Shown here: positions 11,044 through 38,164 of the stretch, one piece after another
Layout: each line of letters begins with the position of its first letter
How positions within the stretch are numbered: the stretch's first letter is position 1
Source of the DNA: Ignavibacteriota bacterium
GTDB taxonomy: Bacteria; Bacteroidota; Ignavibacteria; UBA10030; UBA6906
Assembly (NCBI GenBank): GCA_031394795.1
Contig: JANNUB010000585.1
Span: forward strand, 1-38,164
Length of the DNA stretch: 38,164 bases
Direction: 5' to 3'
Position numbers and translations under genes: made by a program
Notes under the pieces: generated by a model
Seen by the model: the letters and a program-made list of their open reading frames with translations, nothing else
Told to the model about the DNA's origin: nothing
Database searches by the model: none

Positions 11044-12624
11044 CTATTTCTGAATCTGATACACGGAATCGAGCAACGTTCCATCTACCCATTTCACAAC
11101 AGCGACGACGTTGTCTTTCTTAACTTTGGGTTTCATCGGAGTGCCTCCACAGATATCGAAGACCTCTTCTTTTATTTCATCGAGTGTCCGGAGAGGAAGC
11201 GAACTTGAGGAGAGTTTTTTCTTTAGATCCTGTCGTGCAGGATTAATGGCAATGCCGCGTTCCGTAACAACAACATCAATCAGCTCGCCCGGTCCGCATA
11301 ACGTTGTCACTTCGTCAACAATAACAGGAACCCGATCTCGAAAAGACGGAATTGCAAGAATAACACATTTGCCGAAAAGGCAATCCTGCCAACCACCAAT
11401 ACCGTGAAGAAGGTAACCGTCGGAATGCGTTACTACGTTTGCATTGAAATGGACATCAACTTCGGTCGCGCCAAGCACAGCAACATCGAGCATTGAAGCA
11501 AAATTACCTTTCCCATAATAATTGTAGCTTGTAAAGGGGCTGGTGTTCACATGTCTCGCGTTATCGCGCAGAGAGCGTACGCCGTCTGCATCAAAAGCCT
11601 GTCCGTCGAGAATGTAATCCGTCAATTCTTCTTCCAACATTTCAACAAGATAGCGGGTGCTTCCACCGCGAATGAATCGCGCCTTGATGTTTCGCGCTTT
11701 CATTCTTTCTTTTAGGTACACGGCAAAGGCGAGACTGATGCCTCCTGCACCCGCTTGAAATGAAAAACCATCGTGCATTATCCCCGCCTCTTCAACAAAT
11801 CGCGCAACGTATTCCGCTATGAGAAGACGATCGGGGCTTTTCGTGAGTTGCGTCGTTCCCGATACGATCTTCGCCGGATCTCCAAGGCTTTCTACTTGAA
11901 CGACACAATCAACATTGTTGCCCTGGATGTGCCACGGCACGCACGGAAAATTCACGAGAGTATCCGTCACCACAATCACTTTGTCTGCGTATTCCGAATC
12001 GGCAAGCGCAAATCCGAGCGGACCGCACGCAGACTTTCCGTCCACACCGTTGGCGTTGCCGAAAGGATCGGCGCAGGGCGCCGCAATGACTGCTATGTCA
12101 ATGTGAACGTCTCCATTCTGGACCGCACTATATCGCCCGCCGTGTGAGCGGAGAACACCAACACCTCGCATGTGTCCATCCGACGCGTACCGTCCGAGCG
12201 GTCCGTTCATGCTTCCTTCGATGTGATGGATGGTTCCGTCGTCCAAATATTTGATGAGGTATTCGTGGCAAGGGAATGATGCGCTCGGAAACCATCGAAT
12301 ATTTTTTACTCCCATCTCTTTGATGGTATCAAAAAACAGATTCGTCAGGGCATCGCCGTTGCGCAAATGATGGTGCGTGGAAATTGTCATCCCGCTTTTC
12401 AATCCGGATTTTCTCAGCGCTTCCTTCAGGTTCTTTACCACTTTGTTTCCGTCCGAAGGGAAATCGGCGCAACTGCGAATCGGCGGACCGGAAATGTTGC
12501 GTGCTGGACGAACCGCACCGACTCCCATGTACGGCAACTGGGAAATTCCATTGACGTAACGCGGAATCAATCGGCCCGCGGCGTTCCGTATAAGTTTGGA
12601 TTTGGTTGAAGTGGATGTTGGCAT
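11044..12624 (-). CDS. citF: Citrate lyase alpha subunit / citrate CoA-transferase-like protein
   Basis: GMTISTHHHLRNGD, RSHGGR, FSFQAGAGG, LGATEVDVHFNANV and DVVVTERGIAINP motifs. Confidence 0.88.
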   Translation of the reverse strand: MPTSTSTKSKLIRNAAGRLIPRYVNGISQLPYMGVGAVRPARNISGPPIRSCADFPSDGNKVVKNLKEALRKSGLKSGMTISTHHHLRNGDALTNLFFDTIKEMGVKNIRWFPSASFPCHEYLIKYLDDGTIHHIEGSMNGPLGRYASDGHMRGVGVLRSHGGRYSAVQNGDVHIDIAVIAAPCADPFGNANGVDGKSACGPLGFALADSEYADKVIVVTDTLVNFPCVPWHIQGNNVDCVVQVESLGDPAKIVSGTTQLTKSPDRLLIAEYVARFVEEAGIMHDGFSFQAGAGGISLAFAVYLKERMKARNIKARFIRGGSTRYLVEMLEEELTDYILDGQAFDADGVRSLRDNARHVNTSPFTSYNYYGKGNFASMLDVAVLGATEVDVHFNANVVTHSDGYLLHGIGGWQDCLFGKCVILAIPSFRDRVPVIVDEVTTLCGPGELIDVVVTERGIAINPARQDLKKKLSSSSLPLRTLDEIKEEVFDICGGTPMKPKVKKDNVVAVVKWVDGTLLDSVYQIQK

Positions 12625-12757
12625 ATCAATCTCGCGTTACGATCTTTCGAGTGAATCACTCATGTTACGCAGACAAGAGTCTCCTCTGTGCGAAAGCCTG
12701 CGTATAGAGTAGAGGGGAATCTGCAATTGAACGTTTCGGTGTCGTTCTATCCCCCAT

Positions 12758-13273
12758 TTATTTTGTCCGTCCAGTTACAATCTTGTCATATTCAATGTCG
12801 TTTGGCTCCCACAATTCAACCTTATTACCTTCAACGTCTATGATGTGAACAAATTTGCCGTATTCAAATGATTCTATTTTGTCAGCAATTGTCACGCCTT
12901 CTTTTTTTAGTTGTTCGACAAGTCCTTCCAGATTTTCAACTCTATAATTTATCATAAAGTCCTTTGTCGAAGGTTCAAAATACTTTGTTGTCTCGGTAAA
13001 TGGACTCCATTGCGTAAACCCTTTTTTTGTCGTGTCTGCGCCTTGTCGCCACTCAAAATTTGTCCCGTATTGGTCGGTGTCTAGACCCAAATGAGTTTTA
13101 TACCACTCTTTCATTTTGTTGGGGTCTTTACACTTAAAAAAGATACCGCCGATGCCTGTTACTTTTTTCATTTTATTGTTGTCGTTAGATTGTTTTGAAA
13201 TGATTGTGTTAAATGCGAAACAAAAACCGAATGATGTCACAAGTGCTAAAAATATTAATGTTTTCTTTTTCAT
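12758..13273 (-). CDS. VOC (glyoxalase/bleomycin-resistance) family protein with a signal-like N-terminus
   Basis: KVTGIGGIFFKCKDP, FMINYRVENL and YGKFVHIIDVEGNKVELWEP motifs; visibly more AT-rich than its neighbours. Confidence 0.88.
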   Translation of the reverse strand: MKKKTLIFLALVTSFGFCFAFNTIISKQSNDNNKMKKVTGIGGIFFKCKDPNKMKEWYKTHLGLDTDQYGTNFEWRQGADTTKKGFTQWSPFTETTKYFEPSTKDFMINYRVENLEGLVEQLKKEGVTIADKIESFEYGKFVHIIDVEGNKVELWEPNDIEYDKIVTGRTK

Positions 13274-13396
13274 TTGTTTCCGTCTGTTTAGTGTCCGTTG
13301 TGTCGTCTTTTACGCTTACTGCTAACCACCGGGTTTGTGTCACATGAGGGAATCAATTTGTGATGAAGAATGGATTGCTATTTTGATGTCCGGACA

Positions 13397-14593
13397 TTAG
13401 CTCATTTTTGCCAATGCAAGCACTCGTTGTGCCCGTAGCACAACAGGTGCGTCAATCATTTTTGAACCGAGCGCAACCACTCCCGAACCACTTCGTTGGG
13501 CATCAGCGTAAGCCTCAACAACCCGCGTTGCGTAGGCAACCTCCTCGGCTGTCGGCGCAAATGCTTCATGGACAATTTTGATTTGTCTTGGATGAATACA
13601 ACCTTTCCCGTCAAAACCAATCGCCTTGGCTTCCAGCGCACTTTGTCTCAGACCATCGTCGTCGCTGACATCGGAAAGGACGGAATCCAACGCCTGGAGT
13701 CCGGCTGCTTTTGCAGCGTTCACAATTGCGCTGCGCGCATAGAGACTCTCAGCGCCGGCTTTCGTCCGCGCTGCGCCGATATCGGCAGTGTAATCCTCAA
13801 GCCCAATCGCGATCGCGCAATTGCGGTTACTCGCCGAGGCAATCTCGAATGCGCGGACCACACCCAATGCACTTTCGATAATCGGAAGGAGCAATACCGT
13901 GTTTTTGATATCATGAAGCGTGGAAAGCCGCTCGATCTCGCGTTCCACTTCCTTTACGTTCTCAGCTGATTCACATTTGGGAATCAAAATTGTCTGGACG
14001 TTGTAGGGAATGATGTGTCGAAGATCCTCGATGCCTTCGGGCAACTGATTTATCCTGACCATGCGCTCTGCATCGCCAAAATTCACATGCCTCAACGCAT
14101 TTCGGACAAGAACGCGAGCGCTGTCCTTCTCTGAGGGCGATACGCTGTCTTCAAGGTCAAGTATGATGCAATCCGGTTTGTGCAATGCGGCATTCACGAA
14201 AAACTTCGGTTCGTTTCCGGGCAGATACAATCTCGACCGTCTGAGTCTCTCCTTCGATGAAACCGCGAGACGTTTGCTTCGAACCGGCAAGAGAAAGTCT
14301 TTATCGTCGCTGAGATTCATTCGTCGAAGGGCTGCTTCACAACGTGCGGCAATAATCCAGGGAAGCGCTCCGAAGTCTTCAATAAGAACATGCGCATGTT
14401 TTGTTTGATAGAAGTGAAGGACTTGATTTACAAGCTCCTTGATTGAGGCGCCGTACATTGACTCGACTTTGCTCGTTAACTGAATGTACATGCCTCCGGA
14501 TCGCTTCCGCTCGATCTTAATGTAGCAATCAGATCGAACGTCGTTGCCGCGTCGACCGGAAGAAACGTGCGACGATAAATTTTTCATGTCCAT
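13397..14593 (-). CDS. citE: Fusion of a CitD-like acyl-carrier domain (about 95 aa) and a CitE/HpcH citryl-CoA lyase-like domain
   Basis: N-terminal SD...LTSKVESMYG...EDFGALPWIIAARCEAA (CitD-like). C-terminal RRSRLYLPGN, DLEDSV, VRIN, IPK, IES, GLEDY and GKGCIHPRQI (CitE). Confidence 0.85.
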   Translation of the reverse strand: MDMKNLSSHVSSGRRGNDVRSDCYIKIERKRSGGMYIQLTSKVESMYGASIKELVNQVLHFYQTKHAHVLIEDFGALPWIIAARCEAALRRMNLSDDKDFLLPVRSKRLAVSSKERLRRSRLYLPGNEPKFFVNAALHKPDCIILDLEDSVSPSEKDSARVLVRNALRHVNFGDAERMVRINQLPEGIEDLRHIIPYNVQTILIPKCESAENVKEVEREIERLSTLHDIKNTVLLLPIIESALGVVRAFEIASASNRNCAIAIGLEDYTADIGAARTKAGAESLYARSAIVNAAKAAGLQALDSVLSDVSDDDGLRQSALEAKAIGFDGKGCIHPRQIKIVHEAFAPTAEEVAYATRVVEAYADAQRSGSGVVALGSKMIDAPVVLRAQRVLALAKMS

Positions 14594-14608
14594 CACTTAA
14601 TATTTTAA

Positions 14609-14758
14609 TAACTGACGTTACGCACAGAGAAAAGATTTGCCACAAAGACTCTAAGGACACGAAGGTTTCACCAAGAAAAACATAAACTTTGTGAAGCCTT
14701 AGTGTCTTTGTACCTTAGTGGCAAAGCTTTTTTCTTGAGGCATGCGTAACGTCAGTTA
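14609..14758. mobile_element. MITE-like palindromic element (150 bp)
   Basis: Perfect 16-bp terminal inverted repeat TAACTGACGTTACGCA (14609-14624) / TGCGTAACGTCAGTTA (14743-14758), inner arms TTTGCCAC...AAGG / CCTT...GTGGCAAA, TA at both ends. Confidence 0.72.
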
Positions 14759-15735
14759 ATAAGTTGTGCCAGCTTTGATGCAACATCAAGCAAGTCCATG
14801 CCTTTCGTGAACGGTAGGCAAACGCCTGACGTAATTCGCACTTTGTTAACCCATGCTTCCGGAATGCTTTTCATGCCGTTCATTGCGCCGCTTAACGCGC
14901 CGACGATTGCAGCAATCGTGTCGGCATCGCGGCCAAAATTACCGCCGAAAATAATTCCCTTTTGAAAATCACCCTTCGTCATCTTCAGCACTGCAAAGGC
15001 AGACGCGACGGCTTCAGGAGCGGCGGCTTTGTATTCCGTCCAGAGCGCTGCATGTAACGGCATCCATGCCGCTTCCCATGTGTCGCTCTCTTCAATAATA
15101 CTGAGCGCTTTTGTGAGAGTGTATCTCATCCATGAATCGTCAGGCGTTGTGTGAACTGCTGACTGCAAAACCTCATCCAAGTTCCCGCCAGCCATCGCAA
15201 CAGCAATTCCCGCGGCAATCGCTTGAGCACCCCAGACTCCGTCGCGCGAATGACTGATGCGTGACTCAATCTCAGCCAATCGCGCTGCGCGTTCCGGATC
15301 ACCAGCACAGGCAATCCCGATTGGTGTTATGCGCATTGCCGCGCCGTCACTCAAGCAGTGCGAGTTGTACGCTCCAGAAAGCGGCGGGAAGACACCGCGC
15401 CGGATGTTGACTGCCGCTTCACGCTCGCTTGCCCCGCCGCGCTTCAACTCTTGTAGTGGCAGAACATGCGTCATCCAACTTTCAAGAACATGCGCGTCGG
15501 TAATCGCGCCCTTAGCATTGATAAGCGTGTGGGCCGTCAGGAGAGCAAACTCCGTATCGTCCGTGCCCGGTGCGGGGCCTTCGGGAAAATCCGTTGTAAT
15601 GCCAAACCGGAATTGATTCTCTGGCGATCGTGCGGCATCGCCAAACGAATCGCCGATTGCGTGTCCGATGAGACATGCGGATGCACGATCAACCAAACGT
15701 GACTTATCTTTCAGAAGTTCAGATTTCGGAATCAT
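14752..15735 (-). CDS. ADP-ribosylglycohydrolase family protein (ARH-4 in transcription order)
   Basis: GHAIGDSFG, GTDDTE, SDGAAMRITP, ISH and GRDADTIAAIVGA motifs. Confidence 0.92.
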   Translation of the reverse strand: MIPKSELLKDKSRLVDRASACLIGHAIGDSFGDAARSPENQFRFGITTDFPEGPAPGTDDTEFALLTAHTLINAKGAITDAHVLESWMTHVLPLQELKRGGASEREAAVNIRRGVFPPLSGAYNSHCLSDGAAMRITPIGIACAGDPERAARLAEIESRISHSRDGVWGAQAIAAGIAVAMAGGNLDEVLQSAVHTTPDDSWMRYTLTKALSIIEESDTWEAAWMPLHAALWTEYKAAAPEAVASAFAVLKMTKGDFQKGIIFGGNFGRDADTIAAIVGALSGAMNGMKSIPEAWVNKVRITSGVCLPFTKGMDLLDVASKLAQLIN

Positions 15736-15744
15736 GCTGTGCTT

Positions 15745-17094
15745 TCATTGTGTTGAATCTGTTGAATGAAATTGTGCGACGTGCACTGTGCGGCGTGCAA
15801 GATCGCTGAACGTCGCATTGTCGAACCCCTTGAGGCTGGTGCGAATTCGATCGTGCAGTGGCTCAATCCATTGCTGCGGGAGTTTATCGGCTCCAAGCAT
15901 TGTTCCCATGATCGAACCAACAGTGGCGCCGTTGCAATCTGTATCCCATCCCCCCATCACCGCATTGCAGATTGCGCGACCATAATCGTTATCGCTGGAA
16001 AGAAGTGCCGCTACAACAAGCGCTGCATTATTGATGGCGTGTACCCAGTGATAGGCTCCGTATTTGTCATAGAGCAGATTCACAGTCTCTTCCCAACTCA
16101 TTTTCTCCACAGGCAGGGCGAGTACAAACCGGATAGCCTCTGCAAAACGCGATTGCGGCGGGATGAATTTTAACGCGTTGGAAACTATTTCACGTATGTC
16201 ATCCCTAACAAACGAATCAGCAATTGCAGCAGCAAAGAACACTTCACCGTAGATTCCGTTCCGCACATGGCTCAGGCTCGCATCACGCCACGCCAATTCC
16301 GCTGCACGGGAAGGCTGCGCCGGTGAAGCCCATCCCCAAATATCGGCTCTGATCTGAGCGCCGATCCATTCTCGGTATGGATTTCTCTTCAGTGCAGTTT
16401 GGGGAGGCTGCAAGTCATTCAGGTAGTTAACGTATGCGACCCGTTCACCCGAGAATGTGGAGAGAACAGGAAGCATGGCGAGCCATGTTTGAGCAACATG
16501 TTCAGTGTCGAATTTTTTTCCATACGTCTCAAGAATATGGAGGTTGAGCATCGGGAAGTTCATGTCATCATCTTCTGTCATGCAGAGAATGTTTTCCCGC
16601 AAGCTCTCTCTTCCGCTATGTTTATTCCATGGATATTGTTTCAGCAGGGATTGTGGAATTCCCCGTTCCGTTATGTACTCTGTGAGAGGCCACGTGCCGT
16701 TTGACAAAAGCATTTCTTTGATTGCATGCCGTGGAATTTTTTCGACCGGCTTTCCCAAGAGACAACCCGCCGCTCTACCGAGCCATCCCCCCAGAATTCT
16801 GTTCTCGATGAAGGCTGGAGAATACGATGGAACCTCTTCAGTGTTGATGTGACAAAGCTGAGATGCGACATCCCATGATGATGGCTCGTAAGGAAAATCT
16901 CTTGCTGCCGAGAAACCTTCTTCGATCTCCCGATAGAATTCCTCAGCCCTGTTCCGAAACTCCGCCTCGGAAAATTCTTGTCTCTTCAAATCTTTCCATC
17001 GTTGAAAAAGTTCTGTAACATGAGCACCCTCTTCTTGAAGTTGCTTCAACTCATGTTCAATGCGTTCAGGTATTTCTATCCAGGAAATTCTCAT
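15745..17094 (-). CDS. ADP-ribosylglycohydrolase family protein, long form with N-terminal extension (ARH-3)
   Basis: GWLGRAAGCLLGKPVE, EDDD, NPYREWIGAQIRAD, SHVRNGIYG and GWDTDCNGATVGS motifs. Confidence 0.9.
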   Translation of the reverse strand: MRISWIEIPERIEHELKQLQEEGAHVTELFQRWKDLKRQEFSEAEFRNRAEEFYREIEEGFSAARDFPYEPSSWDVASQLCHINTEEVPSYSPAFIENRILGGWLGRAAGCLLGKPVEKIPRHAIKEMLLSNGTWPLTEYITERGIPQSLLKQYPWNKHSGRESLRENILCMTEDDDMNFPMLNLHILETYGKKFDTEHVAQTWLAMLPVLSTFSGERVAYVNYLNDLQPPQTALKRNPYREWIGAQIRADIWGWASPAQPSRAAELAWRDASLSHVRNGIYGEVFFAAAIADSFVRDDIREIVSNALKFIPPQSRFAEAIRFVLALPVEKMSWEETVNLLYDKYGAYHWVHAINNAALVVAALLSSDNDYGRAICNAVMGGWDTDCNGATVGSIMGTMLGADKLPQQWIEPLHDRIRTSLKGFDNATFSDLARRTVHVAQFHSTDSTQ

Positions 17095-18146
17095 GCTTCT
17101 TTGTCATGGTTTCTGAGGGCTGCATCAACGAGACGATCCGTAAGCTCAAGAAAATTTGTCCCCGCCAGCGAGGGAATGCATACGCCTTTCAGAGTTGTTA
17201 TTGCAGCAAGCCAGCTTGCACTTGCAATCTCTCCGGAACTCATTGCCCCAACCAGCGCTCCAACTGCTGCCGGAAGTGAATCGGCTGCCTTCGCAAACGA
17301 CGCCGCAGTTGTAAGAGCAAGTTCAAAGTCATGCCCGATCATTTTTGCGATGACGAAAGTGAGAGCAAGAGTTTCCGGTGCCGCGTTTCCATAGCTGTAC
17401 TCTCGATTGATGATCGTATTCTGAATTTTCGGATGCATCGAAAACAAAGAATCGCGATCATCTGCAAAAGCAAGCGCGTCATCGACCTTTCGTCGTACCA
17501 ATGAAGACATTGGAAGAAATTGAAGTGACGCGTCAAGAATTTCATTTACACTCTTTCCCACACACGCCAGACTTATTGCCGCAGAGAATGCCTGAGCCGC
17601 CCATACACCATCTTCAGCATTTGTGACAGAGGCATCAAGTGCAGCCATGCGTGCCGCTTTCTCCGGATTGCCCGCACAGAAAATGCCGATTGGTACTGCA
17701 CGGGAAACAGCGCCGTCGTCGAAGTAATGCGGGTTCTCTCTCCCCGAACGAGGAGGCTTAATATCTTTACGTAGGTTACTCAATGCGGCTTGCGTACTCA
17801 CTCCACCTTTGATGATTTCACCCGACTGTGCAAGCGTGAGCCACACGTCATGAAGCGCGCGTTCGAATCCATCATCTCTCTTTAAAAGAATATTCGTCGT
17901 GAACGCCGCCCACTCCGAATCGTCTGTCGGTGAAATGTCGAATGACTCCGCAGGCTGGTTCAGAGAAAACGGCATAGCCAACGCAAGTACGTTCGATGTC
18001 TCAGATGCAGCATCCATCTCGCGCCGAATCCTTCGCGTCCATGGAGGAAGTAAATAGCTGCGATGAAACATCGCAGTCCAACTGAGAGCATCACCGATTG
18101 CAAGACCCAGCATTGCATTCCGTGCACGTTCCCTGAGCGCGTTCAT
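17091..18146 (-). CDS. ADP-ribosylglycohydrolase family protein with a degenerate second metal motif (ARH-2)
   Basis: GLAIGDAL, PTDDSEW and NPHYFDDGA motifs; AKAADS in place of G-x-D-x-D-T. Start placed at the ATG (18146) that overlaps the upstream TGA. Confidence 0.85.
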   Translation of the reverse strand: MNALRERARNAMLGLAIGDALSWTAMFHRSYLLPPWTRRIRREMDAASETSNVLALAMPFSLNQPAESFDISPTDDSEWAAFTTNILLKRDDGFERALHDVWLTLAQSGEIIKGGVSTQAALSNLRKDIKPPRSGRENPHYFDDGAVSRAVPIGIFCAGNPEKAARMAALDASVTNAEDGVWAAQAFSAAISLACVGKSVNEILDASLQFLPMSSLVRRKVDDALAFADDRDSLFSMHPKIQNTIINREYSYGNAAPETLALTFVIAKMIGHDFELALTTAASFAKAADSLPAAVGALVGAMSSGEIASASWLAAITTLKGVCIPSLAGTNFLELTDRLVDAALRNHDKEA

Positions 18147-27099: not shown

Positions 27100-27139
27100 A
27101 GAACATCCGGAAGAATATTTTTGCTGTTGCTGTTTTAGG

Positions 27140-27173
27140 TATTGGAAGGGTGGCTCACGCCACCCTTCCAATA
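27140..27173. other. Perfect 15-bp stem hairpin in the intergenic region (possible mRNA-stabilising, processing or atypical terminator structure)
   Basis: TATTGGAAGGGTGGC-TCAC-GCCACCCTTCCAATA, about 37 nt downstream of the large NHL gene stop. No U-tract follows it on the minus strand. Confidence 0.6.
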
Positions 27174-27210
27174 AAAACTGACATTACAATGATCGTTGCT
27201 GAGCGTGGTA

Positions 27211-29790: not shown

Positions 29791-29869
29791 ACAACCTCCA
29801 TAAATTAGAAACATGAAATAGTGAATCAAGTATTTTGAAATTTCTGAATAGCTGTTGTTGAAATGAAAT

Positions 29870-32083
29870 TTATTTCGCAAGGATCATCTTTCTTGTTTCG
29901 GTAATGCTCCCTGCGCTCAGTTTGTAGAAATAGACGCCGGTGGGAAAATCCGACGCGTCCCACGTAGCCTTGTGAATTCCGGCAGCCATCGGTTCATTCA
30001 CAAGCGTGGCGACTTCTCTTCCCAACACATCGTACACCTTCATCGTCACGCGACTGACCTCTGATCTCTGACCTCTGACCTCTGCTATTTGAAATCTGAT
30101 CTCTGTCGTCGGGTTGAACGGATTGGGATAGTTTTGATGCAAAGCAAAACTCGAAGGCGATGTTCCTGTTTCTTCGACCGAGACCACAAGATCATTTCGA
30201 TACACCGTCAATCCATCAATGCGCTCGGCAACGTATGCAAAGCCGCCGTCAACGGCGACACCGCGTGCAATGGGAACGCCATCGTAGAATCCCGCAAGAA
30301 CCGGAGCTGCAGGATTTGTGATATTGACTACCCGCAGACCACGATCATCGGCGGGCACGTAGACGTAATTTCCGCTGATCGCCGCGGCATAGCCGTAACC
30401 GCGTGTCCACACTTTGCCAACTTGCACCGGCGTCGCGATGTTAGAAATATTGTACACGCGAAGCGAGTCTCCATCAGGAGCGTACGCGAAATTCCCGGCA
30501 ATTGCCAAGCCTTCATTACCGCTGACGAGAGTCCCAGTTTGTCCACCTGCGACAGGGGCAGCCGGATTCGTGACATTATAGAAACGAATCAAGTTGAAAA
30601 GGCTCGTAGCGACAACGTTGCCTGCCGCTGCAACGTTTTCGACATCGATGCCTCGTACATTGGTAAGCCACGTGGGATTTGCGGGATTCGTTATGTTCAA
30701 AACAACAAGGCCGCTATCGCGTGTTGCGACGTACACATAATTGCCATTGATTGCAATTCCGCGAGCGCGTGATGTTGCAATTCCACGGATTGATACGGGC
30801 GCTGCGGGATTCGTCGCATTGATCACGCGTACACCGGAATCCATATCTGCAACATACGCATACCCGCTGCGCACCACAACATTGCGGGCTTCACCGGGTG
30901 TGTCAAGTACTCCGAGAAGCGTCGGGTTGCTGGGTGTCGAGACATCGAGAATTCGCAGACCCGCGCTGCCATACGCGACATAGACTTTGTTGTTATCATA
31001 AAATGCACTGAAGGCAGATCCGGAAGCAGCGTTCTGAGAACCGAGGAACCCTGACGTTGTCGGTGTCGCGGGAATTGAAACGTTAATTGCACTCAACCCG
31101 GATACTGTTGTACGGTTTGAAACATAGATGTGACCTGTCGGGTTACCGCCAATAGTGATCGCTCCATAATAGACAGATGCCGCGCGCCCGACGGTGCCGA
31201 TCCTACTGACATACGTTGGCGCTGCCGGGTTCACGACATTGATAATTCTCATCCCTGAGTCTCCGTTGGCGACGTAACCATAGTTTCCATCGAACACAAT
31301 GCGCGCAGTCCGGTGACCGGTCGGAACCTCCATTACATTGACCGGATTTGCAGGATTTGTGACGTTGATAACCTGGAGGCCTGCGTCGAAGTTGCAGACA
31401 TAGGCGTAGCCCGAGCGTACATTGAGATATTGGTGGTATCCGCCGTAGCCGGCTATTCTTCCAGTGTACACCGGTGCCGTGGGAGTTGAAATGTTCACGA
31501 TATGACTTCTTCCCGCTGCGGCAATGTATGCATAGGGTGACGAGATCACAACGCTCTCGCAGTACGCGAGGCTGTCAATAGATGCCGCAAGCGTTGGGCT
31601 TGCCGGAGTTGCGATGCTATATATTTTTAGCCCGGCACCTCCCGCCGCGACATACGCGTACGTTCCACTTGTCGCAACACCTTCGCATATTGCGCCGGTG
31701 CCAACCTCGACAGTCGAAGTAAGAGACGGGGTCGTTGGATTCTGTACATTGATGAGCCACATCTTGCTGCCTCCGGTAACCACGAGATATTGGTTTCCAC
31801 CAATCGATGTTCGCACCAAATCTTCAACGACTTCGGACAATGTTACACTGGCAATTCTTACAGGTGCAGACGGAACGGAGAAGCTTGCAATCTGTACCTT
31901 ACTTCCAAGTCCGTAAAACACAAGCGAGCCTGCGGCAAAAACCGCTTTCGATTCTCCTTCCCCCTTTCCGAAATTCCCAAGCTGCGTGACGTTCAGTACC
32001 TCCTGGGAGAACGCCAATTGCGCGGAGAGCACAACACACAGGAATGCAAGCAGTGGATGGAACGTTGGTATTTTTTTGTTCAT
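29870..32083 (-). CDS. Secreted LVIVD-repeat protein with a T9SS type A C-terminal domain
   Basis: Signal peptide ending AFS|Q; many GxYAYVA....GLx(I/V)(I/L)(N/D)(V/I)(S/T)NPxxP repeats; LHQNYPNPFNP...GVYFYKL...RKMILAK. Confidence 0.9.
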   Translation of the reverse strand: MNKKIPTFHPLLAFLCVVLSAQLAFSQEVLNVTQLGNFGKGEGESKAVFAAGSLVFYGLGSKVQIASFSVPSAPVRIASVTLSEVVEDLVRTSIGGNQYLVVTGGSKMWLINVQNPTTPSLTSTVEVGTGAICEGVATSGTYAYVAAGGAGLKIYSIATPASPTLAASIDSLAYCESVVISSPYAYIAAAGRSHIVNISTPTAPVYTGRIAGYGGYHQYLNVRSGYAYVCNFDAGLQVINVTNPANPVNVMEVPTGHRTARIVFDGNYGYVANGDSGMRIINVVNPAAPTYVSRIGTVGRAASVYYGAITIGGNPTGHIYVSNRTTVSGLSAINVSIPATPTTSGFLGSQNAASGSAFSAFYDNNKVYVAYGSAGLRILDVSTPSNPTLLGVLDTPGEARNVVVRSGYAYVADMDSGVRVINATNPAAPVSIRGIATSRARGIAINGNYVYVATRDSGLVVLNITNPANPTWLTNVRGIDVENVAAAGNVVATSLFNLIRFYNVTNPAAPVAGGQTGTLVSGNEGLAIAGNFAYAPDGDSLRVYNISNIATPVQVGKVWTRGYGYAAAISGNYVYVPADDRGLRVVNITNPAAPVLAGFYDGVPIARGVAVDGGFAYVAERIDGLTVYRNDLVVSVEETGTSPSSFALHQNYPNPFNPTTEIRFQIAEVRGQRSEVSRVTMKVYDVLGREVATLVNEPMAAGIHKATWDASDFPTGVYFYKLSAGSITETRKMILAK
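30054..30084. repeat. Heptamer tandem repeat (CTGA(C/T)CT, about 4.4 copies) inside the C-terminal domain coding region
   Basis: ctgacct ctgatct ctgacct ctgacct ctg; encodes AEVRGQRSEVS. Confidence 0.75.
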
Positions 32084-32156: not shown

Positions 32157-32517
32157 TAGAAAGTCTTCTGGAAAAAATTCTAACCGCAGAGAGCGCCGAG
32201 GTCGCAGAGAAAAGAATTGAAATAGGAAAAAAAACAAAAATCCTTTCTTCGCGACATCTGCGTAGCAAACCCGAGGAATCATGTTTTCTCAGCAAGATTT
32301 TCCAAGCCAAAGAGAAAAAGCGAAACCACGGATTGCGCAGATTAACGCAGATTAGACTCCATCACCAAGGGTTGTATGTTGGTCGAATTGGACTCATAAA
32401 AAAACAATCAGTGAAAATCCGTGAAATCTGTGGTTCAGTTTTTCTTTGGTTGCGGCTTTGCTGCGCTGCGTTCTCTGCGGTTGAGTTCTTTCTTCCCAGC
32501 TTTTCGTCCGCGCTTCT
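32157..32517. mobile_element. Composite of nested MITE-like palindromic elements
   Basis: Outer AACCGCAGAG...CTCTGCGGTT element homologous to 24682-24834, interrupted by an AGCAAA...TTTGCT-bounded segment. That segment contains an AACCACGGATT...AATCTGTGGTT hairpin. Confidence 0.68.
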
Positions 32518-33547
32518 AGAATGAAAAGCCGAGAGAAAACATATGCACCTGTGTGAGATCGCCAAAATCGACATACGCATAGTTGACAGTCCCCTGCACT
32601 CCCGCAAAAGGATATGTAATACCTGCGCCGAACGTGAACCGCTGCTCGTCGTAACTAAACTTATAGCCACCGCGGAGAAAGAGAACATTATCGAATGAGT
32701 TGCTCGCGCCAACATGAAATTTTTCTCTGCCATCATTCGGATGATCTCCTTCCACGACAACCGTAAGGAGGTGAGGGCTGTCTATCTCATCAAGGAAATC
32801 CATCGCAATGCCCGCCCGCAGGTCGAGGGGCATGCGCACGTTGTCCGATTCGGTTTGAAATTCCTCGCTCCATCCACCAAATCGCGAATCCGGTCCAAAG
32901 TTCCTTGCGGCAATTGCTACGCGAAGGCTTCGGAAGCCGGTGTAATACAGCGTTCCGACATCGAGTGACCAATTGTTCATTGTCAACTCGGCAATCTTTT
33001 GGCGCATCCATCGGAAGTTTCCTCCGACGGAGAGTTTGTCTGTAATTCTTCGTGCATACGAAAATCCTGCGGCGATATCTCGCGCTGAAAAAACATCTCC
33101 GGTTACCACCGGAGTCGTCCGATTCTCTCCCGCGATCGGACTGTTGATCGTTTCCGGAATATCACCATAGTCGAGCATTGCAAGGCTAACGCCAACAATA
33201 CCAAAATCACCGAGGTTTGTCGCAAGAGCCACCGATTGATGAGATATGTCCGCAATCCATTCCATGGTATTGAGTTGAACATCGTACTCCTCAACATCGG
33301 CAAGCGCGGCAGGATTGCCAAACACGGAGTTTGCGTTTCCGCGAGAGATCGCCGTAAACGCTCCCGCCATTCCCGCCTGTCTGGCATCACCGTTGATTTT
33401 CAGAAATTGCCAGCCTGATTGCCCAACCCGCTCAACCTGATTTGGTGAGATGCCCGACTGGGCATGCAACGATGCAGTAAAGCAGGTCACTGCCAACAGT
33501 ACTTCGCCAAGTATTCTATTCTTCTGAGCCATGGGATTCATCTCCAT
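32516..33547 (-). CDS. PorV/PorQ-like (UPF0164-type) outer-membrane beta-barrel
   Basis: QFLKINGDARQAGMAGAFTA, NPAALA, FSYARRITDKLSVGGN, LFLRGGYK and a C-terminal HMFSLGFSF. Confidence 0.85.
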   Translation of the reverse strand: MEMNPMAQKNRILGEVLLAVTCFTASLHAQSGISPNQVERVGQSGWQFLKINGDARQAGMAGAFTAISRGNANSVFGNPAALADVEEYDVQLNTMEWIADISHQSVALATNLGDFGIVGVSLAMLDYGDIPETINSPIAGENRTTPVVTGDVFSARDIAAGFSYARRITDKLSVGGNFRWMRQKIAELTMNNWSLDVGTLYYTGFRSLRVAIAARNFGPDSRFGGWSEEFQTESDNVRMPLDLRAGIAMDFLDEIDSPHLLTVVVEGDHPNDGREKFHVGASNSFDNVLFLRGGYKFSYDEQRFTFGAGITYPFAGVQGTVNYAYVDFGDLTQVHMFSLGFSF

Positions 33548-35472
33548 TACTTCACGATCGCGAGTTTACCGATAAACGATTCCCCCACATGACCCGCAAC
33601 AAGCGATTCCACGCGATACAGATAAATTCCGGGAGCTACTCCGAGCGTCCATTTATTAAGTTGATAGTCTAATCGTTTTATGCTTCCCCACGCTTCGGAT
33701 CCGCTGCCGTCGTCGTGATCAATTTCTTGAACGAGATCACCTACAAGAGTGTAGATTTTTATTTTGCAGCGTGCGGGAATACCGATGAACTCCATTCTGA
33801 ACCGCTCGCCCGTTCCCGTAAGTCCGCTGTGTTGGCGAAATGGATTCGGCACAACAAATACACTTTTCGGAAACTGCTCATTCGGTGCGCGAAGTTGATA
33901 AACAGGAAATCTCGTATTGTTAACTTTACCGCTTTCGTTACCCGCCGCATCATAGCTTGTAACACAATAGTAGCTGCCGACGCCAAATGGCTGTCCTTTA
34001 TCGATGTATCTCACTTTCCCATTGGCGATAGTGGCGGAATCTTTTTTGATATCCGCAGCAATTGTCCAGGGACCAATTGTAAAATAGGTCGAACGATACA
34101 ATCTGTATCCTGCAAAATCGTCGAGTCCGGTGATCGGATCTCTGTATGATTGCGGAATTGGAGGCCAATCAATTATGATCTGTCCGGGTTCGGATCGAAT
34201 TGCGAGACTGTTTTCGTCATTTGTTGGTGTTGGGGGCGGGTGAACCGTTGGCATATAGCTATTTGCAAAAAGTCGGCGCGCTGCTCGCACATGCGCAAGC
34301 ATCGAATCCCGCGATGCAGTTGCCATCAAGTCTATGTTCGCCACTCCGCCTTCTACAATTTTTGCGCGATCCATTTCGCCCATTACTTCTGCAAAAACTA
34401 TTCTCACGGATCCGAATGGAGATAACGAAACCGGTCCGACACTGACCAAAAACTCCGGGCGGCGCTCATATTTATTGCCGCCTTCGCCACCGGCAGTCTT
34501 TGCCGCATCCCACGATAGGCGCGGTTGCTGGTGGGTCATGACTTCTTTCACACGAGCAGCAGAAGAAACTCCTTGAATAAACATCACGTCTTCGCTGGGA
34601 GCGCCTTCCGTTAGTCCCTGTCCCGTATGTTCAAGAATGTTTTGGTACACACGAGCGCCGCCCGAATCGAGCACAACAACAGTAAAATATCCCGGCGCAT
34701 CAAGTTCGTGCTCGCGAATCCCTTGCTGATAGATATCGCGCGAATCTCCGATATCACCGCGCAATGGTCCAACGCCAAAATTATAGACAATCGGCACTTC
34801 ATCTGCCGTTCTAAATCTCCTGTCATCATAAAAATAGAATAGCTTCTCACTCGCATCCCACGCATATTTTTCATCGCCTCTGCTTCCCGAACGTTGCGTG
34901 ATCCGAATTCCATATCGCATACCAAAGTAAAGGGAGTCCACAGCGGTGAGTTCATTGTTGGTAATGGTAACCTCATGAATGATGAAGTCGCTCATTCCCG
35001 GATAACTCCACACCATACTGCGGCGAGCAACATCAACATCGAGACCGTTGACATGATGAGCGCCGCTGACGATTTCCTCTCCGGCAACACCGAGATCTTG
35101 AAGGTTGTAATTTTTTGTGAGCGTCGCTTCTTCAATCGGGAAAACCTCCTGACCCGATGGAAAGAACCGCGAATTTAAAGTGTAGGAATATGCTGTAGCG
35201 CTGCGAACGCCATAGATGGCATATCCCGCTGCTTCGGCGTAGTTCAGCGCATCATTGACATTTGTTGCTTTCGAGTATCCGGGATAATCAAGCGTGTGAA
35301 ACCCATTTTGCGTTTCCGTCGGGTCTCCATACTGAAGCGAATTCCACACTGTCGCCCAGAGCTTGCCCCGTTTCAGCGTTTGTTTACCCCACGTTACCTG
35401 TGCGGAAGCGGTTCCTGCAACCAGCAGCGTCAAAACAATTACACATCTGAATTTTCTTTTGCCTGTTCTCAT
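33547..35472 (-). CDS. Secreted hypothetical receptor-partner protein with FN3-like and T9SS-CTD-like C-terminal regions
   Basis: Start MRTGKRKF (ATG 35472); signal peptide ending ASA|Q; DFAGYRLYRS, YYCVTSYDAAGNESG, VFVVPNPF, KIKIYTLVGDLV, VAPGIYLY and GKLAIVK motifs. Confidence 0.72.
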   Translation of the reverse strand: MRTGKRKFRCVIVLTLLVAGTASAQVTWGKQTLKRGKLWATVWNSLQYGDPTETQNGFHTLDYPGYSKATNVNDALNYAEAAGYAIYGVRSATAYSYTLNSRFFPSGQEVFPIEEATLTKNYNLQDLGVAGEEIVSGAHHVNGLDVDVARRSMVWSYPGMSDFIIHEVTITNNELTAVDSLYFGMRYGIRITQRSGSRGDEKYAWDASEKLFYFYDDRRFRTADEVPIVYNFGVGPLRGDIGDSRDIYQQGIREHELDAPGYFTVVVLDSGGARVYQNILEHTGQGLTEGAPSEDVMFIQGVSSAARVKEVMTHQQPRLSWDAAKTAGGEGGNKYERRPEFLVSVGPVSLSPFGSVRIVFAEVMGEMDRAKIVEGGVANIDLMATASRDSMLAHVRAARRLFANSYMPTVHPPPTPTNDENSLAIRSEPGQIIIDWPPIPQSYRDPITGLDDFAGYRLYRSTYFTIGPWTIAADIKKDSATIANGKVRYIDKGQPFGVGSYYCVTSYDAAGNESGKVNNTRFPVYQLRAPNEQFPKSVFVVPNPFRQHSGLTGTGERFRMEFIGIPARCKIKIYTLVGDLVQEIDHDDGSGSEAWGSIKRLDYQLNKWTLGVAPGIYLYRVESLVAGHVGESFIGKLAIVK

Positions 35473-35503
35473 TGTAATCTTTCGCGTTGCACGTGGTACG
35501 TTT

Positions 35504-38164
35504 TCAAAAGTCAATCTTCACTTGGAAGTTTATTCTTCGTGGCGGAACTTCATACGAATACCACTCCCATTCATTCGGCTCGGAAAAATCAACGGTCTTG
35601 GGGAGTCGTTCGCTATTCGGCAGCGACGGATTTTCTAAATACCGAGTCAGCTCGTCGCCGTACAGTAGTCGTAGAAATTTCATGTCGAGCAAATTTCTTA
35701 TGTCAACACTAAGCTCGGCTTTTAGCCCGAACAAATTGAAACCCTTTGCTATTCTTAGATCGATTTGATAATAGTTGAACCATCGCTTGTTGTTCGGTTC
35801 AGTGGAGAGATCACCCGGAGCGTGATAGGTGTACTGATCCCCCGTTCGCCACCAAAAATTTGAATACACATAAAAGTCGCTGAACGGACGAACGCCAAAG
35901 ATTTCCGGACCTTCATCTTTTTTTATCGAAAAAATCGCCCAACCCTTTACACGCTGGTAATCGCCCCACGCGCCTCGTCCTTGTCGTAATCCTTTGGGAA
36001 CATCAACACTCTGAGAACCGGTTTCGTACAATCGGCTAAACCCTACTTCCCCATTGAAGGACCAATACACTTCATGACTCAATCCGAAATTAAACATACC
36101 GTCAAATCGTGAGTCTATTTTGGTTTCGATACCTCGCACATCGGAATATCCGGAGTTGCTCACCATGAGCGCCTTGGTCGCAGGATGGGTAGCAGAATAC
36201 ACACCGGTTATCACATTCGCCTCACGCGATCCATCTTTATAGTATCCTGTAAGATCGAGTTTGAGAATATCGGCTATATTATAGTCCACGCCGAGTTCAT
36301 ATTGAATGGTTCGTTCGTACCCTAGTTTTGGATTGCCGTAGTAACCCTGGTATTCATCCATATAGGTGATTTGTTTTGCATAAGGATTCAGAAGGCTATC
36401 CCTAATTTTTGTGTAATTCACAAATGGAAGCCCAAACATCTTTGTCCAAGAAGGTCTTTGATAAACGTGGCTATAGACAAAATGAAGCACCGAATTTTCA
36501 CTCATCGGGTGAGAAATACCCAGCCGCGGTGCAATGGCAACCTGCAACTTCGTGCGCTCTCGTTCCGGCGTTCCGGGAATTCCTAATGGCGCTCCCGGAT
36601 CATGCCCGGGAGTTGACACCTGAAACGCAAGTGGGTCGAACATATTTTTCGGCGCATTACGGTTTTGGTTGAAGAAATCCACTCGAATACCGAGGTTCAT
36701 AATAAGCCCCGGAGTCTCTATCTTGTCTTGCAGATAGGCATTCCCTTCGTACGGATTCCCGTTGAAAACATTCATTTCATTTATTCTGCTGCTTCTGGAT
36801 TCGGCAGCATAGTTTTCATAATTAAAATCATGCGCGTTGAATGCGAAACCTGTTTGGAAATTATGGGTTTGTGTAATCTGATTTGTATAGTCGGCTTTCA
36901 CCTGATATGATTGCGAAAAACTTTTCGTCCACGTATGATAATATCCCTGCAGCGTAAAACGCGGGTGCATCGCTACTCGATCGCTTAACCGAAGCGAGTC
37001 GGGAAGGCGATTATCTCTGTCCGACCTATCCATTCTGTCTTTGAGATAACTGAGAGTTACTTCGTAGAACGATTGTGCATTCAACACATGAGTAACTTTT
37101 CCATATAATTGAGACCATCGGCGAAGTTCGGGCCACTGGCGAAATGCCCCACCAATCAGGTTGTATTTTGCTCGCGCGTACTGCTCATCAACTCTCATCG
37201 GCGCAAGCCAAGCAGATTCTTGTCCGTATTCAGATGTATTAAAATTCGACGACGTGTAATCCGCGCTTTCGTGCCCCCCCACAAATCCGCCGATACGTAG
37301 CTTGAATTCCGGAGAAAACTTGTAGTTAATATATCCTTGAATATTAAACTCAGGGTTATACGGTATTGCCTGTGGAAAAATACCGACACTCCGCTTGTAG
37401 CGCCCTGAGAAAAGAAAACTCAATTCATCAGTTATGCTTCCGTTCAACATTCCTTCGGATTCGTACTCCAGGCGGTTGGCGTAATTGGCAAGCGTATCGT
37501 TCGGAGTGATCTGCGTACGCCACGCTGTTAAGAGAGAGTCGGGATTTTTTCTATAGAATTGGCTGTTCAGATCCTGAGATTGGCGCGTCCAATACTCTAT
37601 GCCGGTGCTGGCATAATCGTTGTTATCTTTGCTGTACATATTACGACCAAAATGGTATATACCTGCTGGTCGTATACGCGAGACAAGAGTGCCATGAATT
37701 CCTGATGGAGCTTCTTTCGAAACAATGTTCACAACAGCAGATCGTCCTTCGCCATACTCAGCATTGTATCCTCCGGTGAGAACCGATATTTGTTCAATCG
37801 CTGTTGTGTTAGACCCAGGATAATTATCAGATACTATTCCGCTATTTACGGAAAGACCGTCAATCTTATATACCGATTGCACGCCCGAACTTCCGCGGAC
37901 GTATGACTTGGTTCGGCCACGCTGCCACGCAAGGGATGAATTATCGCCAAAAAATCCAGCTTGGGTTTCGAGAATCTCTTTGATTGTTCTGACGCCGGCT
38001 TTTTCAATTGTCTGTCCCGTTACAATCTGCTCGCTTGCAGTGAGGTTCTTATCAACAACCGGTTTCTCAGCTATCACCGTGATCAACTCTCCCTCGATCA
38101 GCGCAGGAGTAAGCGCAGTATTTATGGTCGTGGTGCGGTCCACAATCACACCGACATTTGTCTT
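35504..38164 (-). CDS. TonB-dependent receptor, 5' end beyond the window
   Basis: Frame open to the window edge; VIAEKPVVD, plug motifs YVRG, IEQISVLTGGYNAEYG and AVVNIVSK; barrel motifs AYLQDKIE, APRLGISHP and YELG; C-terminal Phe. Confidence 0.9.
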   Translation of the reverse strand, partial: KTNVGVIVDRTTTINTALTPALIEGELITVIAEKPVVDKNLTASEQIVTGQTIEKAGVRTIKEILETQAGFFGDNSSLAWQRGRTKSYVRGSSGVQSVYKIDGLSVNSGIVSDNYPGSNTTAIEQISVLTGGYNAEYGEGRSAVVNIVSKEAPSGIHGTLVSRIRPAGIYHFGRNMYSKDNNDYASTGIEYWTRQSQDLNSQFYRKNPDSLLTAWRTQITPNDTLANYANRLEYESEGMLNGSITDELSFLFSGRYKRSVGIFPQAIPYNPEFNIQGYINYKFSPEFKLRIGGFVGGHESADYTSSNFNTSEYGQESAWLAPMRVDEQYARAKYNLIGGAFRQWPELRRWSQLYGKVTHVLNAQSFYEVTLSYLKDRMDRSDRDNRLPDSLRLSDRVAMHPRFTLQGYYHTWTKSFSQSYQVKADYTNQITQTHNFQTGFAFNAHDFNYENYAAESRSSRINEMNVFNGNPYEGNAYLQDKIETPGLIMNLGIRVDFFNQNRNAPKNMFDPLAFQVSTPGHDPGAPLGIPGTPERERTKLQVAIAPRLGISHPMSENSVLHFVYSHVYQRPSWTKMFGLPFVNYTKIRDSLLNPYAKQITYMDEYQGYYGNPKLGYERTIQYELGVDYNIADILKLDLTGYYKDGSREANVITGVYSATHPATKALMVSNSGYSDVRGIETKIDSRFDGMFNFGLSHEVYWSFNGEVGFSRLYETGSQSVDVPKGLRQGRGAWGDYQRVKGWAIFSIKKDEGPEIFGVRPFSDFYVYSNFWWRTGDQYTYHAPGDLSTEPNNKRWFNYYQIDLRIAKGFNLFGLKAELSVDIRNLLDMKFLRLLYGDELTRYLENPSLPNSERLPKTVDFSEPNEWEWYSYEVPPRRINFQVKIDF

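Follow-up and report, generated by a model that had tools for sequence, protein, structure and literature searches.

What do four ADP-ribosylglycohydrolase (ARH) genes do between a sugar importer and a citrate-lyase-like enzyme? This question is raised by a 38,164-nt stretch of DNA, referred to here as the window, which is the entire contig C320 of a metagenome-assembled genome (MAG) from a sediment bacterium (4.72 Mb in 620 contigs, 98.9% complete, 5.5% contaminated). In this window, the genes of an ATP-binding cassette (ABC) importer are followed by four ARH paralogues, ARH1 to ARH4, by a CitD-CitE fusion (CitDE) and by CitF. We consider it probable, from comparisons of sequence and gene neighbourhood, that the locus encodes a cytoplasmic riboside-catabolic pathway, which would yield ribose and a citrate-like acid. 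An earlier note, made from the letters of the window alone, had proposed that the ARHs are catabolic ribosidases and that the acid aglycone is CoA-activated and cleaved, and the comparative genomics supports this proposal. The genes at the centre of the question are as follows.

21335..22264, minus strand: ABC permease 1 (perm1), CUT1 type (Pfam BPD_transp_1)
20502..21338, minus strand: ABC permease 2 (perm2), CUT1 type, conserved across phyla (Pfam BPD_transp_1)
19129..20505, minus strand: solute-binding protein (SBP) of family 1, membrane-anchored or secreted (Pfam SBP_bac_1, 132 bits)
18143..19135, minus strand: ARH1, catalytic-looking ARH-fold enzyme (PF03747, 191 bits)
17091..18161, minus strand: ARH2, predicted ARH-fold pseudoenzyme (PF03747, 145.6 bits)
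15745..17094, minus strand: ARH3, 449 aa, with a conserved N-terminal extension of ~100 aa (PF03747, 173.9 bits)
14752..15735, minus strand: ARH4, catalytic-looking ARH, 40% identical to ARH1 (PF03747, 168.5 bits)
13397..14596, minus strand: CitD-CitE fusion, acyl carrier plus citryl-thioester-type C-C lyase (Pfam ACP, 64 bits; HpcH_HpaI, 187 bits)
12758..13273, minus strand: VOC/glyoxalase-fold protein with a signal peptide, seen by inspection (Pfam Glyoxalase, 23.3 bits)
11044..12624, minus strand: CitF, acyl transferase of the citrate-lyase alpha subunit type (Pfam CitF, 455 bits)

The co-orientation and tight packing described in the earlier note were borne out by the ORF junctions. All gene-size ORFs of the window are on the minus strand, and from 27171 down to 14752 neighbouring genes, taken as the longest ORFs, overlap by 4-25 nt or sit 9 nt apart. 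The overlaps are 4 nt between 26560-27171 and 24869-26563, 25 nt at 24869/24893, 8 nt at 22257/22264, 4 nt at both 21335/21338 and 20502/20505, 7 nt at 19129/19135, 19 nt at 18143/18161 and 4 nt at 17091/17094; the 9-nt gap is at the ARH3/ARH4 junction (15745/15735). After ARH4 the gaps are 155 nt to CitDE, 123 nt from CitDE to the VOC gene and 133 nt from the VOC gene to CitF. A promoter and terminator scan of 10800-27400 gave 14 and 17 sites, with 15.1 and 18.0 expected from shuffles, and none of these sites was in the three gaps, the sigma-70 consensus being unsuited to the host phylum. No glycoside-hydrolase Pfam family matched any protein of the locus, and the ARH and cit genes stand where glycoside hydrolases would be expected, as had been suggested.

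All four ARHs exceed the Pfam gathering cut-off of PF03747 (26.2 bits), and their genes are the only matches to this family in the genome. The two acidic motifs of the dimetal site, N-terminal [ST]DD and C-terminal DxD[TS] as defined for ARH3 and DraG, read SDDT and DTDT in ARH1, DDD and DTDC in ARH3, and TDDT and DADT in ARH4. The DD(T) and DxDT motifs of ARH1 persist in 79 orthologues, and the TDDT and RD.DT motifs of ARH4 in 30. ARH3 is the most widespread member of the set, and its DDD and GGWDTD[SC] motifs are invariant or almost so in 111 orthologues. A further actinobacterial paralogue, ARHx, also keeps the DD and DxD[TS] motifs (n = 78). The C-terminal DxDT motif of ARH2 reads AADS in the window and neither metal motif is conserved among 73 orthologues; ARH2 is therefore likely to be a pseudoenzyme. 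Mammals also have a catalytically dead ARH paralogue (ARH2). Counterparts of a given paralogue in other phyla resemble it more closely than its neighbours in the locus do, so the ARH set is old.

ARH1 and ARH2 are found together, with 45 of 80 actinobacterial loci having both and none of the 80 having one alone. ARH2 is predicted to pair with ARH1: a model of the complex scored 0.85, compared to 0.00 for the best of three controls, and of 80 solved complexes 58 attained such a score, as did 2 of 110 mismatched pairs, counts that hold only roughly here as our own alignments were used. The model runs agreed in at least 76% of contacts with a partner pLDDT of at least 83, and the modelled interface consists of the most conserved paralogue-specific stretches of both chains, with predicted contacts in residues 97-122 and 224-237 of ARH1 and 121-147 and 252-262 of ARH2. 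The two chains are paralogues, so likeness alone could score a homodimer-like interface, and the binding is a prediction. By inspection, the ARHs, CitDE and CitF have no signal peptide, which places the ARHs in the cytoplasm. The best scores of the ARHs against the equivalog models of DraG and Tri1 were 62.1 bits (cut-off 337) and 55.7 bits (cut-off 490), respectively. The best solved relative of ARH1 was found at E 6e-15 and ARH3 had none at E <= 0.001; the searches of solved structures returned just distant ARH, sugar-binding-protein and CitE-like relatives, with no hint of the substrate.

To determine how constant this arrangement is, loci anchored on ARH1 were compared. The core of perm1-perm2-SBP-ARH1-ARH2-ARH3-ARH4 was kept in the 35 loci (3 actinobacterial and 32 others), with the paralogues individually orthologous across phyla. 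Seven of the 32 loci end too early, leaving 25 that are informative, and CitDE(-CitF) comes right after ARH4 in 14 of these, in some cases via an aldo-keto reductase (AKR). In f1, the family of the window, 7 of 25 genomes have both the ARH module and CitF, which share a contig every time, and the other 18 lack both, so no genome had one alone. The seven genomes belong to four genera (G000, which is the genome of the window, G002, G004, G011, G013, G014 and G022); as they are kin, this co-occurrence is not a statistical test. In G013, the ARH4, AKR, CitDE and CitF genes overlap. The earlier note had expected citE and citF to be linked to ARH orthologues in related genomes, and this linkage was also seen in the three genera examined directly. 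A scan anchored on CitDE (best 80 of 518 relatives) showed CitDE and CitF to be adjacent nearly everywhere, with ABC and ARH genes upstream in 8 of the 80 loci. In a quick IQ-TREE phylogeny of 83 distinct CitF sequences (LG+G4), of which 19 rows had too little flank to be labelled, all 17 ARH-linked sequences formed one clade (SH-aLRT 100), apart from 47 unlinked ones. The CitF of G011 is in two adjoining pieces (C17, 5438-6822; model positions 2-289 and 292-465), which could be a frameshift or an assembly error.

The core of ABC and ARH genes was found in MAGs and isolates labelled Ignavibacteriota, Calditrichia, Neomarinimicrobiota, Bacillota, Deinococcota and Actinomycetota. Three actinobacterial loci carry LacI, perm1, perm2, SBP, ARH1, ARH2, ARHx, ARH3, ribokinase, a family-III CoA-transferase and a CitE-like lyase; with TIGR02152, the ribokinase reaches 299.5 bits (cut-off 299.65). 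In an actinobacterial scan anchored on ARH3 (best 80 of 589 relatives, including Streptomyces, Micromonospora and Leifsonia), ARHx and ARH3 were present in all 80 loci, a CoA_transf_3 and CitE-like lyase pair directly downstream of the ARHs in 74, ribokinase in 59 and ABC genes in 46. Three of the six loci without the pair are contig ends. Actinobacterial clusters of ABC, multiple ARH, CoA-transferase and CitE-like genes had been mentioned in the earlier note; they do exist and are common, and the co-occurrence of ribokinase with ARHs that it had proposed to check is present too. The CitE-like lyase had its best NCBIfam match to RipC/Ccl (163.8 bits, below the cut-off of 375), and the downstream genes of three loci, when scanned, showed no recognisable homologue of a MaoC-type hydratase. 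The use of the same lyase type via a non-homologous acyl-transfer enzyme, together with the frequent ribokinase, is the strongest argument for a pathway that gives free ribose and an acid handled as a thioester.

Other lineages were sampled with an alignment of ARH3, for which 30 of 80 loci, picked by title as other lineages or MAGs, were examined. In Trueperaceae (L232 and L237) the order is ARH1-ARH2-ARHx-ARH3-CoA-transferase-CitE-like, and in Meiothermus (L235) it is LacI-ABC-ARHx-ARH3-CitE-like, with the CoA-transferase ~4 kb further on. A Bacillota MAG (L228) has LacI-ABC-ARH1-4 and a Neomarinimicrobiota locus (L236) has p655-PorV-ribokinase-ABC-ARH1-4, p655 and PorV being described below. 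Solitary ARH3 homologues were found in Bathyarchaeia, Armatimonadota, Thermoprotei, Anaerolineae and Gammaproteobacteria, and a ribokinase homologue adjoins solitary ones in Anaerolineae (L263), Thermoprotei (L276) and an Actinomycetes MAG (L283). An esterase gene is the next one after ARH4 in L120, L123 and L131, and in L232 one follows the CitE-like gene. In the Calditrichia locus L119, a succinyl-CoA-synthetase-like pair two genes after ARH4 was considered as a third CoA-activating device; it was not counted because it may be housekeeping SucCD and a Na/Ca exchanger intervenes. Its beta subunit (550 aa) has a weak Citrate_bind match (20.8 bits, below the cut-off of 26.8).

Two further observations were made in the actinobacterial loci. 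In 9 of the 80 (e.g. L130, 15592-17454), an extra gene for a protein of ~620-780 aa lies between ribokinase and the CoA-transferase; the C-terminal part of this protein is EgtB/SenA-like (a fold like that of the formylglycine-generating enzyme), at 54-56 bits, which is far below the cut-offs. The order ARH1-ARH2-ARHx-ARH3-RbsK-CoA-transferase-CitE-like was seen with no ABC homologue within 10 kb in L180, L200 and ~30 other Streptomyces loci, upstream of which are a divergent gene of ~296 aa and a gene of ~1,560 aa.

The cit genes of the window resemble those of citrate lyase to different degrees. CitF is barely over its equivalog cut-off (TIGR01584, 502.3 against 501.45 bits), and the CitE part scores below that of NCBIfam citE (TIGR01588, 294.8 against 443.4 bits). 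The CitD domain exceeds the cut-off of Pfam ACP (64 against 25.1 bits) and falls below those of the NCBIfam CitD models (58.3 against 65 and 47.7 against 63.5 bits). Its Ser-containing carrier motif, RSDC, is at least 90% conserved in 92 sequences, and this Ser may correspond to Ser14 of CitD. No CitG, CitX or credible CitC was found in the genome of the window. Among 121 sampled genomes of the class, neither CitG nor CitX was found in any, CitF was present in 25 (24 over the cut-off) and PF08218 had weak partial matches of at most 32.5 bits in 61, none of them in the genome of the window. ARH-linked and unlinked CitF sequences differ at 3 clade-specific positions and share 257 conserved columns, and CitDE differs at 1. 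The VOC gene between CitDE and CitF is probably an unrelated insertion, as its product has a signal peptide, paralogues are present elsewhere (contigs C517 and C217) and it is absent from all other linked loci.

Upstream of the importer, the locus carries genes for a receptor and for exported proteins.

35504..38164, minus strand: TonB-dependent receptor, with its 5' end cut by the contig end (Pfam Plug, 42.9 bits)
33547..35514, minus strand: p655, a 655-aa secreted protein resembling cargo of the type IX secretion system (T9SS); signal peptide by inspection
32516..33547, minus strand: outer-membrane barrel of the PorV/PorQ family (NCBIfam NF033709, 193.4 bits, cut-off 90)
29870..32083, minus strand: LVIVD-repeat beta-propeller with a T9SS C-terminal domain (CTD) (LVIVD, 195.5 bits; Por_Secre_tail, 37 bits)
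27211..29880, minus strand: NHL propeller with a T9SS CTD, SMP-30/lactonase-like (NHL, 155.6 bits; SGL, 70 bits; Por_Secre_tail, 46.4 bits)
26560..27171, minus strand: small (203-aa) T9SS CTD protein (Por_Secre_tail, 45.1 bits)
24869..26563, minus strand: exported NHL plus alpha/beta-hydrolase esterase, PHB-depolymerase-like (Pfam NHL, Abhydrolase_2, Esterase_PHB)
22257..24893, minus strand: 878-aa protein with a beta-lactamase-fold C-terminus, family VIII esterase/PBP-like (Pfam Beta-lactamase, 139.6 bits, residues 600-867)

The order of transcription is therefore TonB receptor, p655, PorV/PorQ barrel and, after 432 nt, LVIVD propeller, NHL propeller, 203-aa CTD protein, NHL-esterase and 878-aa protein, followed by perm1, perm2, SBP, ARH1-4, CitDE, VOC and CitF. 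The likeness to a polysaccharide utilisation locus (PUL) that had been noted holds for the TonB-dependent receptor; the SusD-like partner is absent, so this is not a canonical SusC/SusD PUL. The protein taken for that partner, p655, has no Pfam or NCBIfam match, SusD included, and its nearest Atlas clusters are annotated as 'putative T9SS C-terminal target domain-containing protein' (score 0.98). Likewise, the protein previously labelled 'UPF0164' proved to be the PorV/PorQ-family barrel. The sorting domain Por_Secre_tail is above its cut-off of 27 bits in all three proteins that carry it. The NHL-esterase, which has a signal peptide by inspection, scores 64.8 bits with the NCBIfam model of the scl-PHA depolymerase catalytic domain, below the cut-off of 150, and the N-terminal ~590 aa of the 878-aa protein have no assigned domain.

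Many of these genes accompany the importer in other loci. The receptor orthologue and the p655/PorV pair are directly upstream of the ABC genes in Neomarinimicrobiota L123. Orthologues of p655 (57-65% identical) adjoin the ABC-ARH core in L123, L131 and L236, and the barrel is kept together with p655 in these and in L119. LVIVD propeller orthologues are upstream of the ABC genes in L119, L120, L121, L129 and L131, the NHL propeller is upstream in many loci of the ARH1-anchored scan, and an orthologue of the 878-aa protein is directly upstream of perm1 in most loci labelled Ignavibacteriota or Bacteroidota. On contigs C72, C289 and C456 of the same genome there are further pairs in which a p655-like protein accompanies a PorV-family barrel, and contigs C62 and C479 have a PorV-like match only (28-34% identity). 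This pattern suggests that such T9SS cargo forms a family of proteins, every member having a PorV-like partner of its own. Between the 889-aa and 564-aa proteins (24869-29880), the NHL regions are 67-68% identical over ~340 aa in several registers, and appear to be recently duplicated repeat blocks.

The importer itself is of the CUT1 type, with two BPD_transp_1 permeases and a family-1 SBP in the operon and a MalK-type ATPase elsewhere; a homologue on contig C331 is 53% identical to the in-cluster ATPase of L123. In actinobacterial loci, the orthologues of perm1 are 50-54% identical and those of the SBP 35-39%. The closest solved chains of the SBP are sugar or oligosaccharide binders, at E 4e-17 or weaker. 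The LacI gene in the window (7063-8139) was considered as a regulator of the ABC and ARH genes; it is merely 26-30% identical to the LacI preceding the ABC genes in monoderm versions, and more likely regulates the hexuronate genes downstream. These form a co-oriented hexuronate-type set (389-8139) that looks like a separate uronate pathway, with UxaC glucuronate isomerase (5576-7048), UxaE-like tagaturonate epimerase (4168-5643), an MFS transporter, an SDR, 6-phosphogluconate dehydrogenase and a LarA-N-like fragment at the contig end. Directly after CitF is a gene for an 812-aa DUF5916 + CBM9 protein (8490-10928), which has the same position in L015/L097 and L125 (82-83% identity) and paralogues on C557 (70%), C285 and C205 of the genome.

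In the pathway that we favour, the substrate would be captured and trimmed outside the cell in diderm lineages by the T9SS-displayed propellers and esterases and the TonB receptor, and would be imported by the SBP and ABC permeases, energised by the MalK-type ATPase encoded elsewhere in the genome. In the cytoplasm, the ARHs could hydrolyse the ribosyl linkages one by one, ARH1 acting as a heterodimer with ARH2. The products would be free ribose and an acid of the citrate family, polycarboxylic and with a beta-hydroxy group. CitF could then load this acid onto the CitD domain or CoA, and cleavage of the loaded acid by CitE would give an acetyl unit together with a 2-oxo acid. The family-III CoA-transferase would take the place of CitF and CitD in Actinomycetota and Deinococcota. 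The chemistry has a precedent within the family, as ARH3-type enzymes cleave the ribose-ribose and 1''-O-acyl bonds of ADP-ribose.

The imported compound is probably an O-ribosylated organic acid that is also esterified. The recurrence of ribokinase argues for an unphosphorylated riboside, rather than ADP-ribose, as the putative substrate, and the annotated loci contain no Nudix, phosphodiesterase or nucleotidase gene. An acid of 3-hydroxy-3-carboxy type (for instance citrate, homocitrate, citramalate or malate) is what the lyase module calls for, and the near-identity of linked and unlinked CitF points to an acid of the citrate family. The recurrent esterases and, in diderms, the secreted lactonase-like propellers and polyester-hydrolase-like esterases point to ester decorations or to a larger form that is esterified. 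One candidate named in the earlier note, ribocitrin, is a real compound, described as 'a tririboside of (S)-homocitric acid' (PMC12381216). Its three glycosidic bonds can be set beside the three catalytic-looking ARHs. The linkages were reportedly found to be alpha in 1982. Ribocitrin-type ribosides as the substrate are a speculative fit, and we regard it as doubtful that ARH1 with pseudo-ARH2, ARH3 and ARH4 or ARHx form an alpha-ribofuranosidase machine stripping ribocitrin-type oligoribosides (or a polymeric or esterified form), with a CitG/CitX-independent variant of citrate lyase then cleaving the tricarboxylate. Another idea raised earlier, that the ARHs service the prosthetic group of CitD, is unlikely because the actinobacterial and Deinococcota versions have no CitD; in addition, most CitDE-CitF loci have no ARH.

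Several observations weigh against a riboside pathway. We know of no ARH-fold enzyme that acts on plain ribosides, and none surfaced in our literature searches. The window lacks a ribokinase gene, and no ribokinase could be recognised in the genome (best PfkB match 117.7 bits against 299.65), where tblastn with the actinobacterial ribokinase returned nothing at E <= 1e-8. With CitG and CitX missing from the genome and from the 121 class genomes, either the CitD domain would have to be loaded by another route or the enzymes would use free CoA. The presence of only 3 clade-specific positions in linked CitF gives no sign of a specialised acid. In 11 of the 25 informative non-actinobacterial loci, there are no adjacent cit genes, and ARH4 is followed by an esterase, a MalK-type ATPase or unrelated genes. 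Of five such genomes tested, CitF was encoded elsewhere in four, and the Calditrichia genome had no CitF at all. The adjacency of ARH and cit genes within Ignavibacteriota may also stem from a single event. The cit genes of the window are themselves set apart by the three wider gaps and the foreign-looking VOC gene, and 72 of the 80 CitDE-anchored loci show no ARH genes.

Some of these points would be expected if two unrelated systems were neighbours, an ABC and ARH operon having been inserted beside citDE-citF genes of central tricarboxylate metabolism that merely hitch-hike. Forty-seven of the CitDE-anchored loci have at least 6 kb of ARH-free upstream DNA, and in 46 of them a PrpD-family gene is just upstream, within an operon of aconitase/Iso_dh type. 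In genomes labelled Ignavibacteriota, the ARH-free pair closes a conserved operon of Iso_dh, (CstA), HD, aconitase-family and MmgE/PrpD genes (L018, 1710-12893, and 46 loci), therefore CitDE-CitF has a life of its own, and in that setting it would be a citrate-lyase-like enzyme in a tricarboxylate-type operon without known prosthetic-group machinery. The nearly unchanged CitF, the gaps and VOC gene of the window and the 11 loci without cit genes fit this explanation as well. However, the co-occurrence in family f1 is perfect, the ARH4-AKR-CitDE-CitF genes of G013 overlap, and a non-homologous CoA-transferase with a CitE-like lyase has been linked to ARHs independently in 74 of 80 actinobacterial loci and in Deinococcota, so we judge this account to be improbable. 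Slightly less improbable, and still unlikely, is that the ARHs are glycosidases for a ribose- or furanose-containing oligosaccharide and that the CoA/lyase step handles a side product or a sugar-derived acid. The nearest solved relatives of the CUT1 SBP do bind oligosaccharides, the T9SS propellers with the PHB-depolymerase-like and beta-lactamase-fold esterases suggest a decorated polymer, and the rus PULs of Bacteroidetes are described as carrying ARHs beside many glycoside hydrolases (bioRxiv 10.1101/574913). Against this, no glycoside-hydrolase family was found in the window locus or among the neighbouring genes scanned, and in Actinomycetota the lyase module is a more constant companion of the ARHs than the transporter (74 compared to 46 of 80 loci).

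The remaining explanations keep the ARHs closer to the known work of their family. Scavenging of ADP-ribose, poly(ADP-ribose) fragments, O-acyl-ADP-ribose or other NAD-derived nucleotides would agree with membership of PF03747 and with ARH3-type chemistry. We consider it very unlikely, since Nudix, phosphodiesterase and nucleotidase genes are missing from the annotated loci, ribokinase uses free ribose and not the ribose 5-phosphate that ADP-ribose would give, the likeness to DraG, Tri1 and ARH3 falls far short of the family cut-offs (62 bits at best, against 337), and the CoA/lyase module would be left without a role. That the ARHs reverse ADP-ribosylation of protein, DNA or RNA, as DraG-like regulators or antitoxins, is the only role of the family known from experiment; for this locus it can nearly be dismissed, as four paralogues share one importer operon with LacI, ribokinase and lyase genes, no ADP-ribosyltransferase partner was seen in any locus, and the DraG and Tri1 scores are far below their cut-offs.

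Compared to known systems, the catabolic locus proposed here has parts of several. The rus PULs are likewise nutrient loci thought to free ribose from ribose-containing molecules, and some of them are reported to hold ADP-ribosylglycohydrolases, esterases, LacI and ribokinases; an outer-membrane receptor is common to both systems, and the ARHs of rus were noted but not studied (Glowacki et al., bioRxiv 10.1101/574913). A rus locus is defined by a rusC/rusD (SusC/D) pair, by RusT as its permease and by the presence of one or two ribokinases, whereas the window has no SusD and no ribokinase, and an ABC importer in place of RusT. In addition, four fixed ARH paralogues, one of them a predicted pseudoenzyme, replace the glycoside hydrolases, a thioester lyase module is attached, and the system is also found in monoderm phyla without the outer-membrane part. 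With the ARH/DraG family (DraG, ARH1, ARH3 and Tri1) the locus shares the PF03747 fold (146-191 bits) and, in three of the four proteins, the dimetal motifs. The chemistry of ARH3, cleavage of alpha-1''-O-ribosyl bonds including ribose-ribose bonds and ribosyl esters, is what the proposed pathway needs; the context here is catabolic (importer, ribokinase, lyase) and not regulatory, and the ARHs are a conserved group, two members of which are predicted to form a heterodimer.

Citrate lyase (CitDEF) of Klebsiella, E. coli and lactic acid bacteria is matched by the window in CitF, in a CitE-type lyase domain and in a putative CitD-type carrier with a conserved Ser motif. In the window, however, CitD and CitE are fused, CitE is below the equivalog cut-off, and the 2'-(5''-phosphoribosyl)-3'-dephospho-CoA loading route is missing, as neither CitG and CitX nor a credible CitC was found. 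The versions of Actinomycetota and Deinococcota resemble the Ict/Ccl, RipC and Mycobacterium CitE pairs, which likewise combine a family-III CoA-transferase with a CitE-like lyase; unlike these itaconate/citramalate-type pairs, the pair here is embedded in an ARH/ribokinase operon. No published description of the cluster was found in the full-text literature searched, most subscription journals and supplements being outside its coverage, and we rate the locus as a substrate-utilisation operon with an unprecedented enzyme set.

To summarise, ARH-fold enzymes have been studied almost solely as erasers of ADP-ribosylation, and here a fixed set of them is part of a nutrient-import operon that is shared by Streptomyces and uncultured bacteria of sediments and is coupled to a ribokinase and a C-C lyase. 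If the riboside pathway is true, it would provide a new glycosidase activity, an alpha-ribofuranosidase, on a fold outside the classical glycoside-hydrolase families, account for many bacterial 'orphan' ARH genes, offer a pair of a catalytic enzyme and a pseudoenzyme for study, and imply that soils and sediments hold a pool of ribosylated organic acids that has so far gone unnoticed. With CitG and CitX missing, it also has to be asked how a carrier of the CitD type functions without the known prosthetic-group enzymes. Should the substrate be of the ribocitrin type, the ARH fold would for the first time have a purely catabolic function that does not involve ADP-ribose, and this class of natural products would have its first catabolic route, one carried by hundreds of Streptomyces and Micromonospora genomes as well as by uncultured sediment phyla. 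The riboside question can be tested in Actinomycetota that are culturable and genetically tractable.

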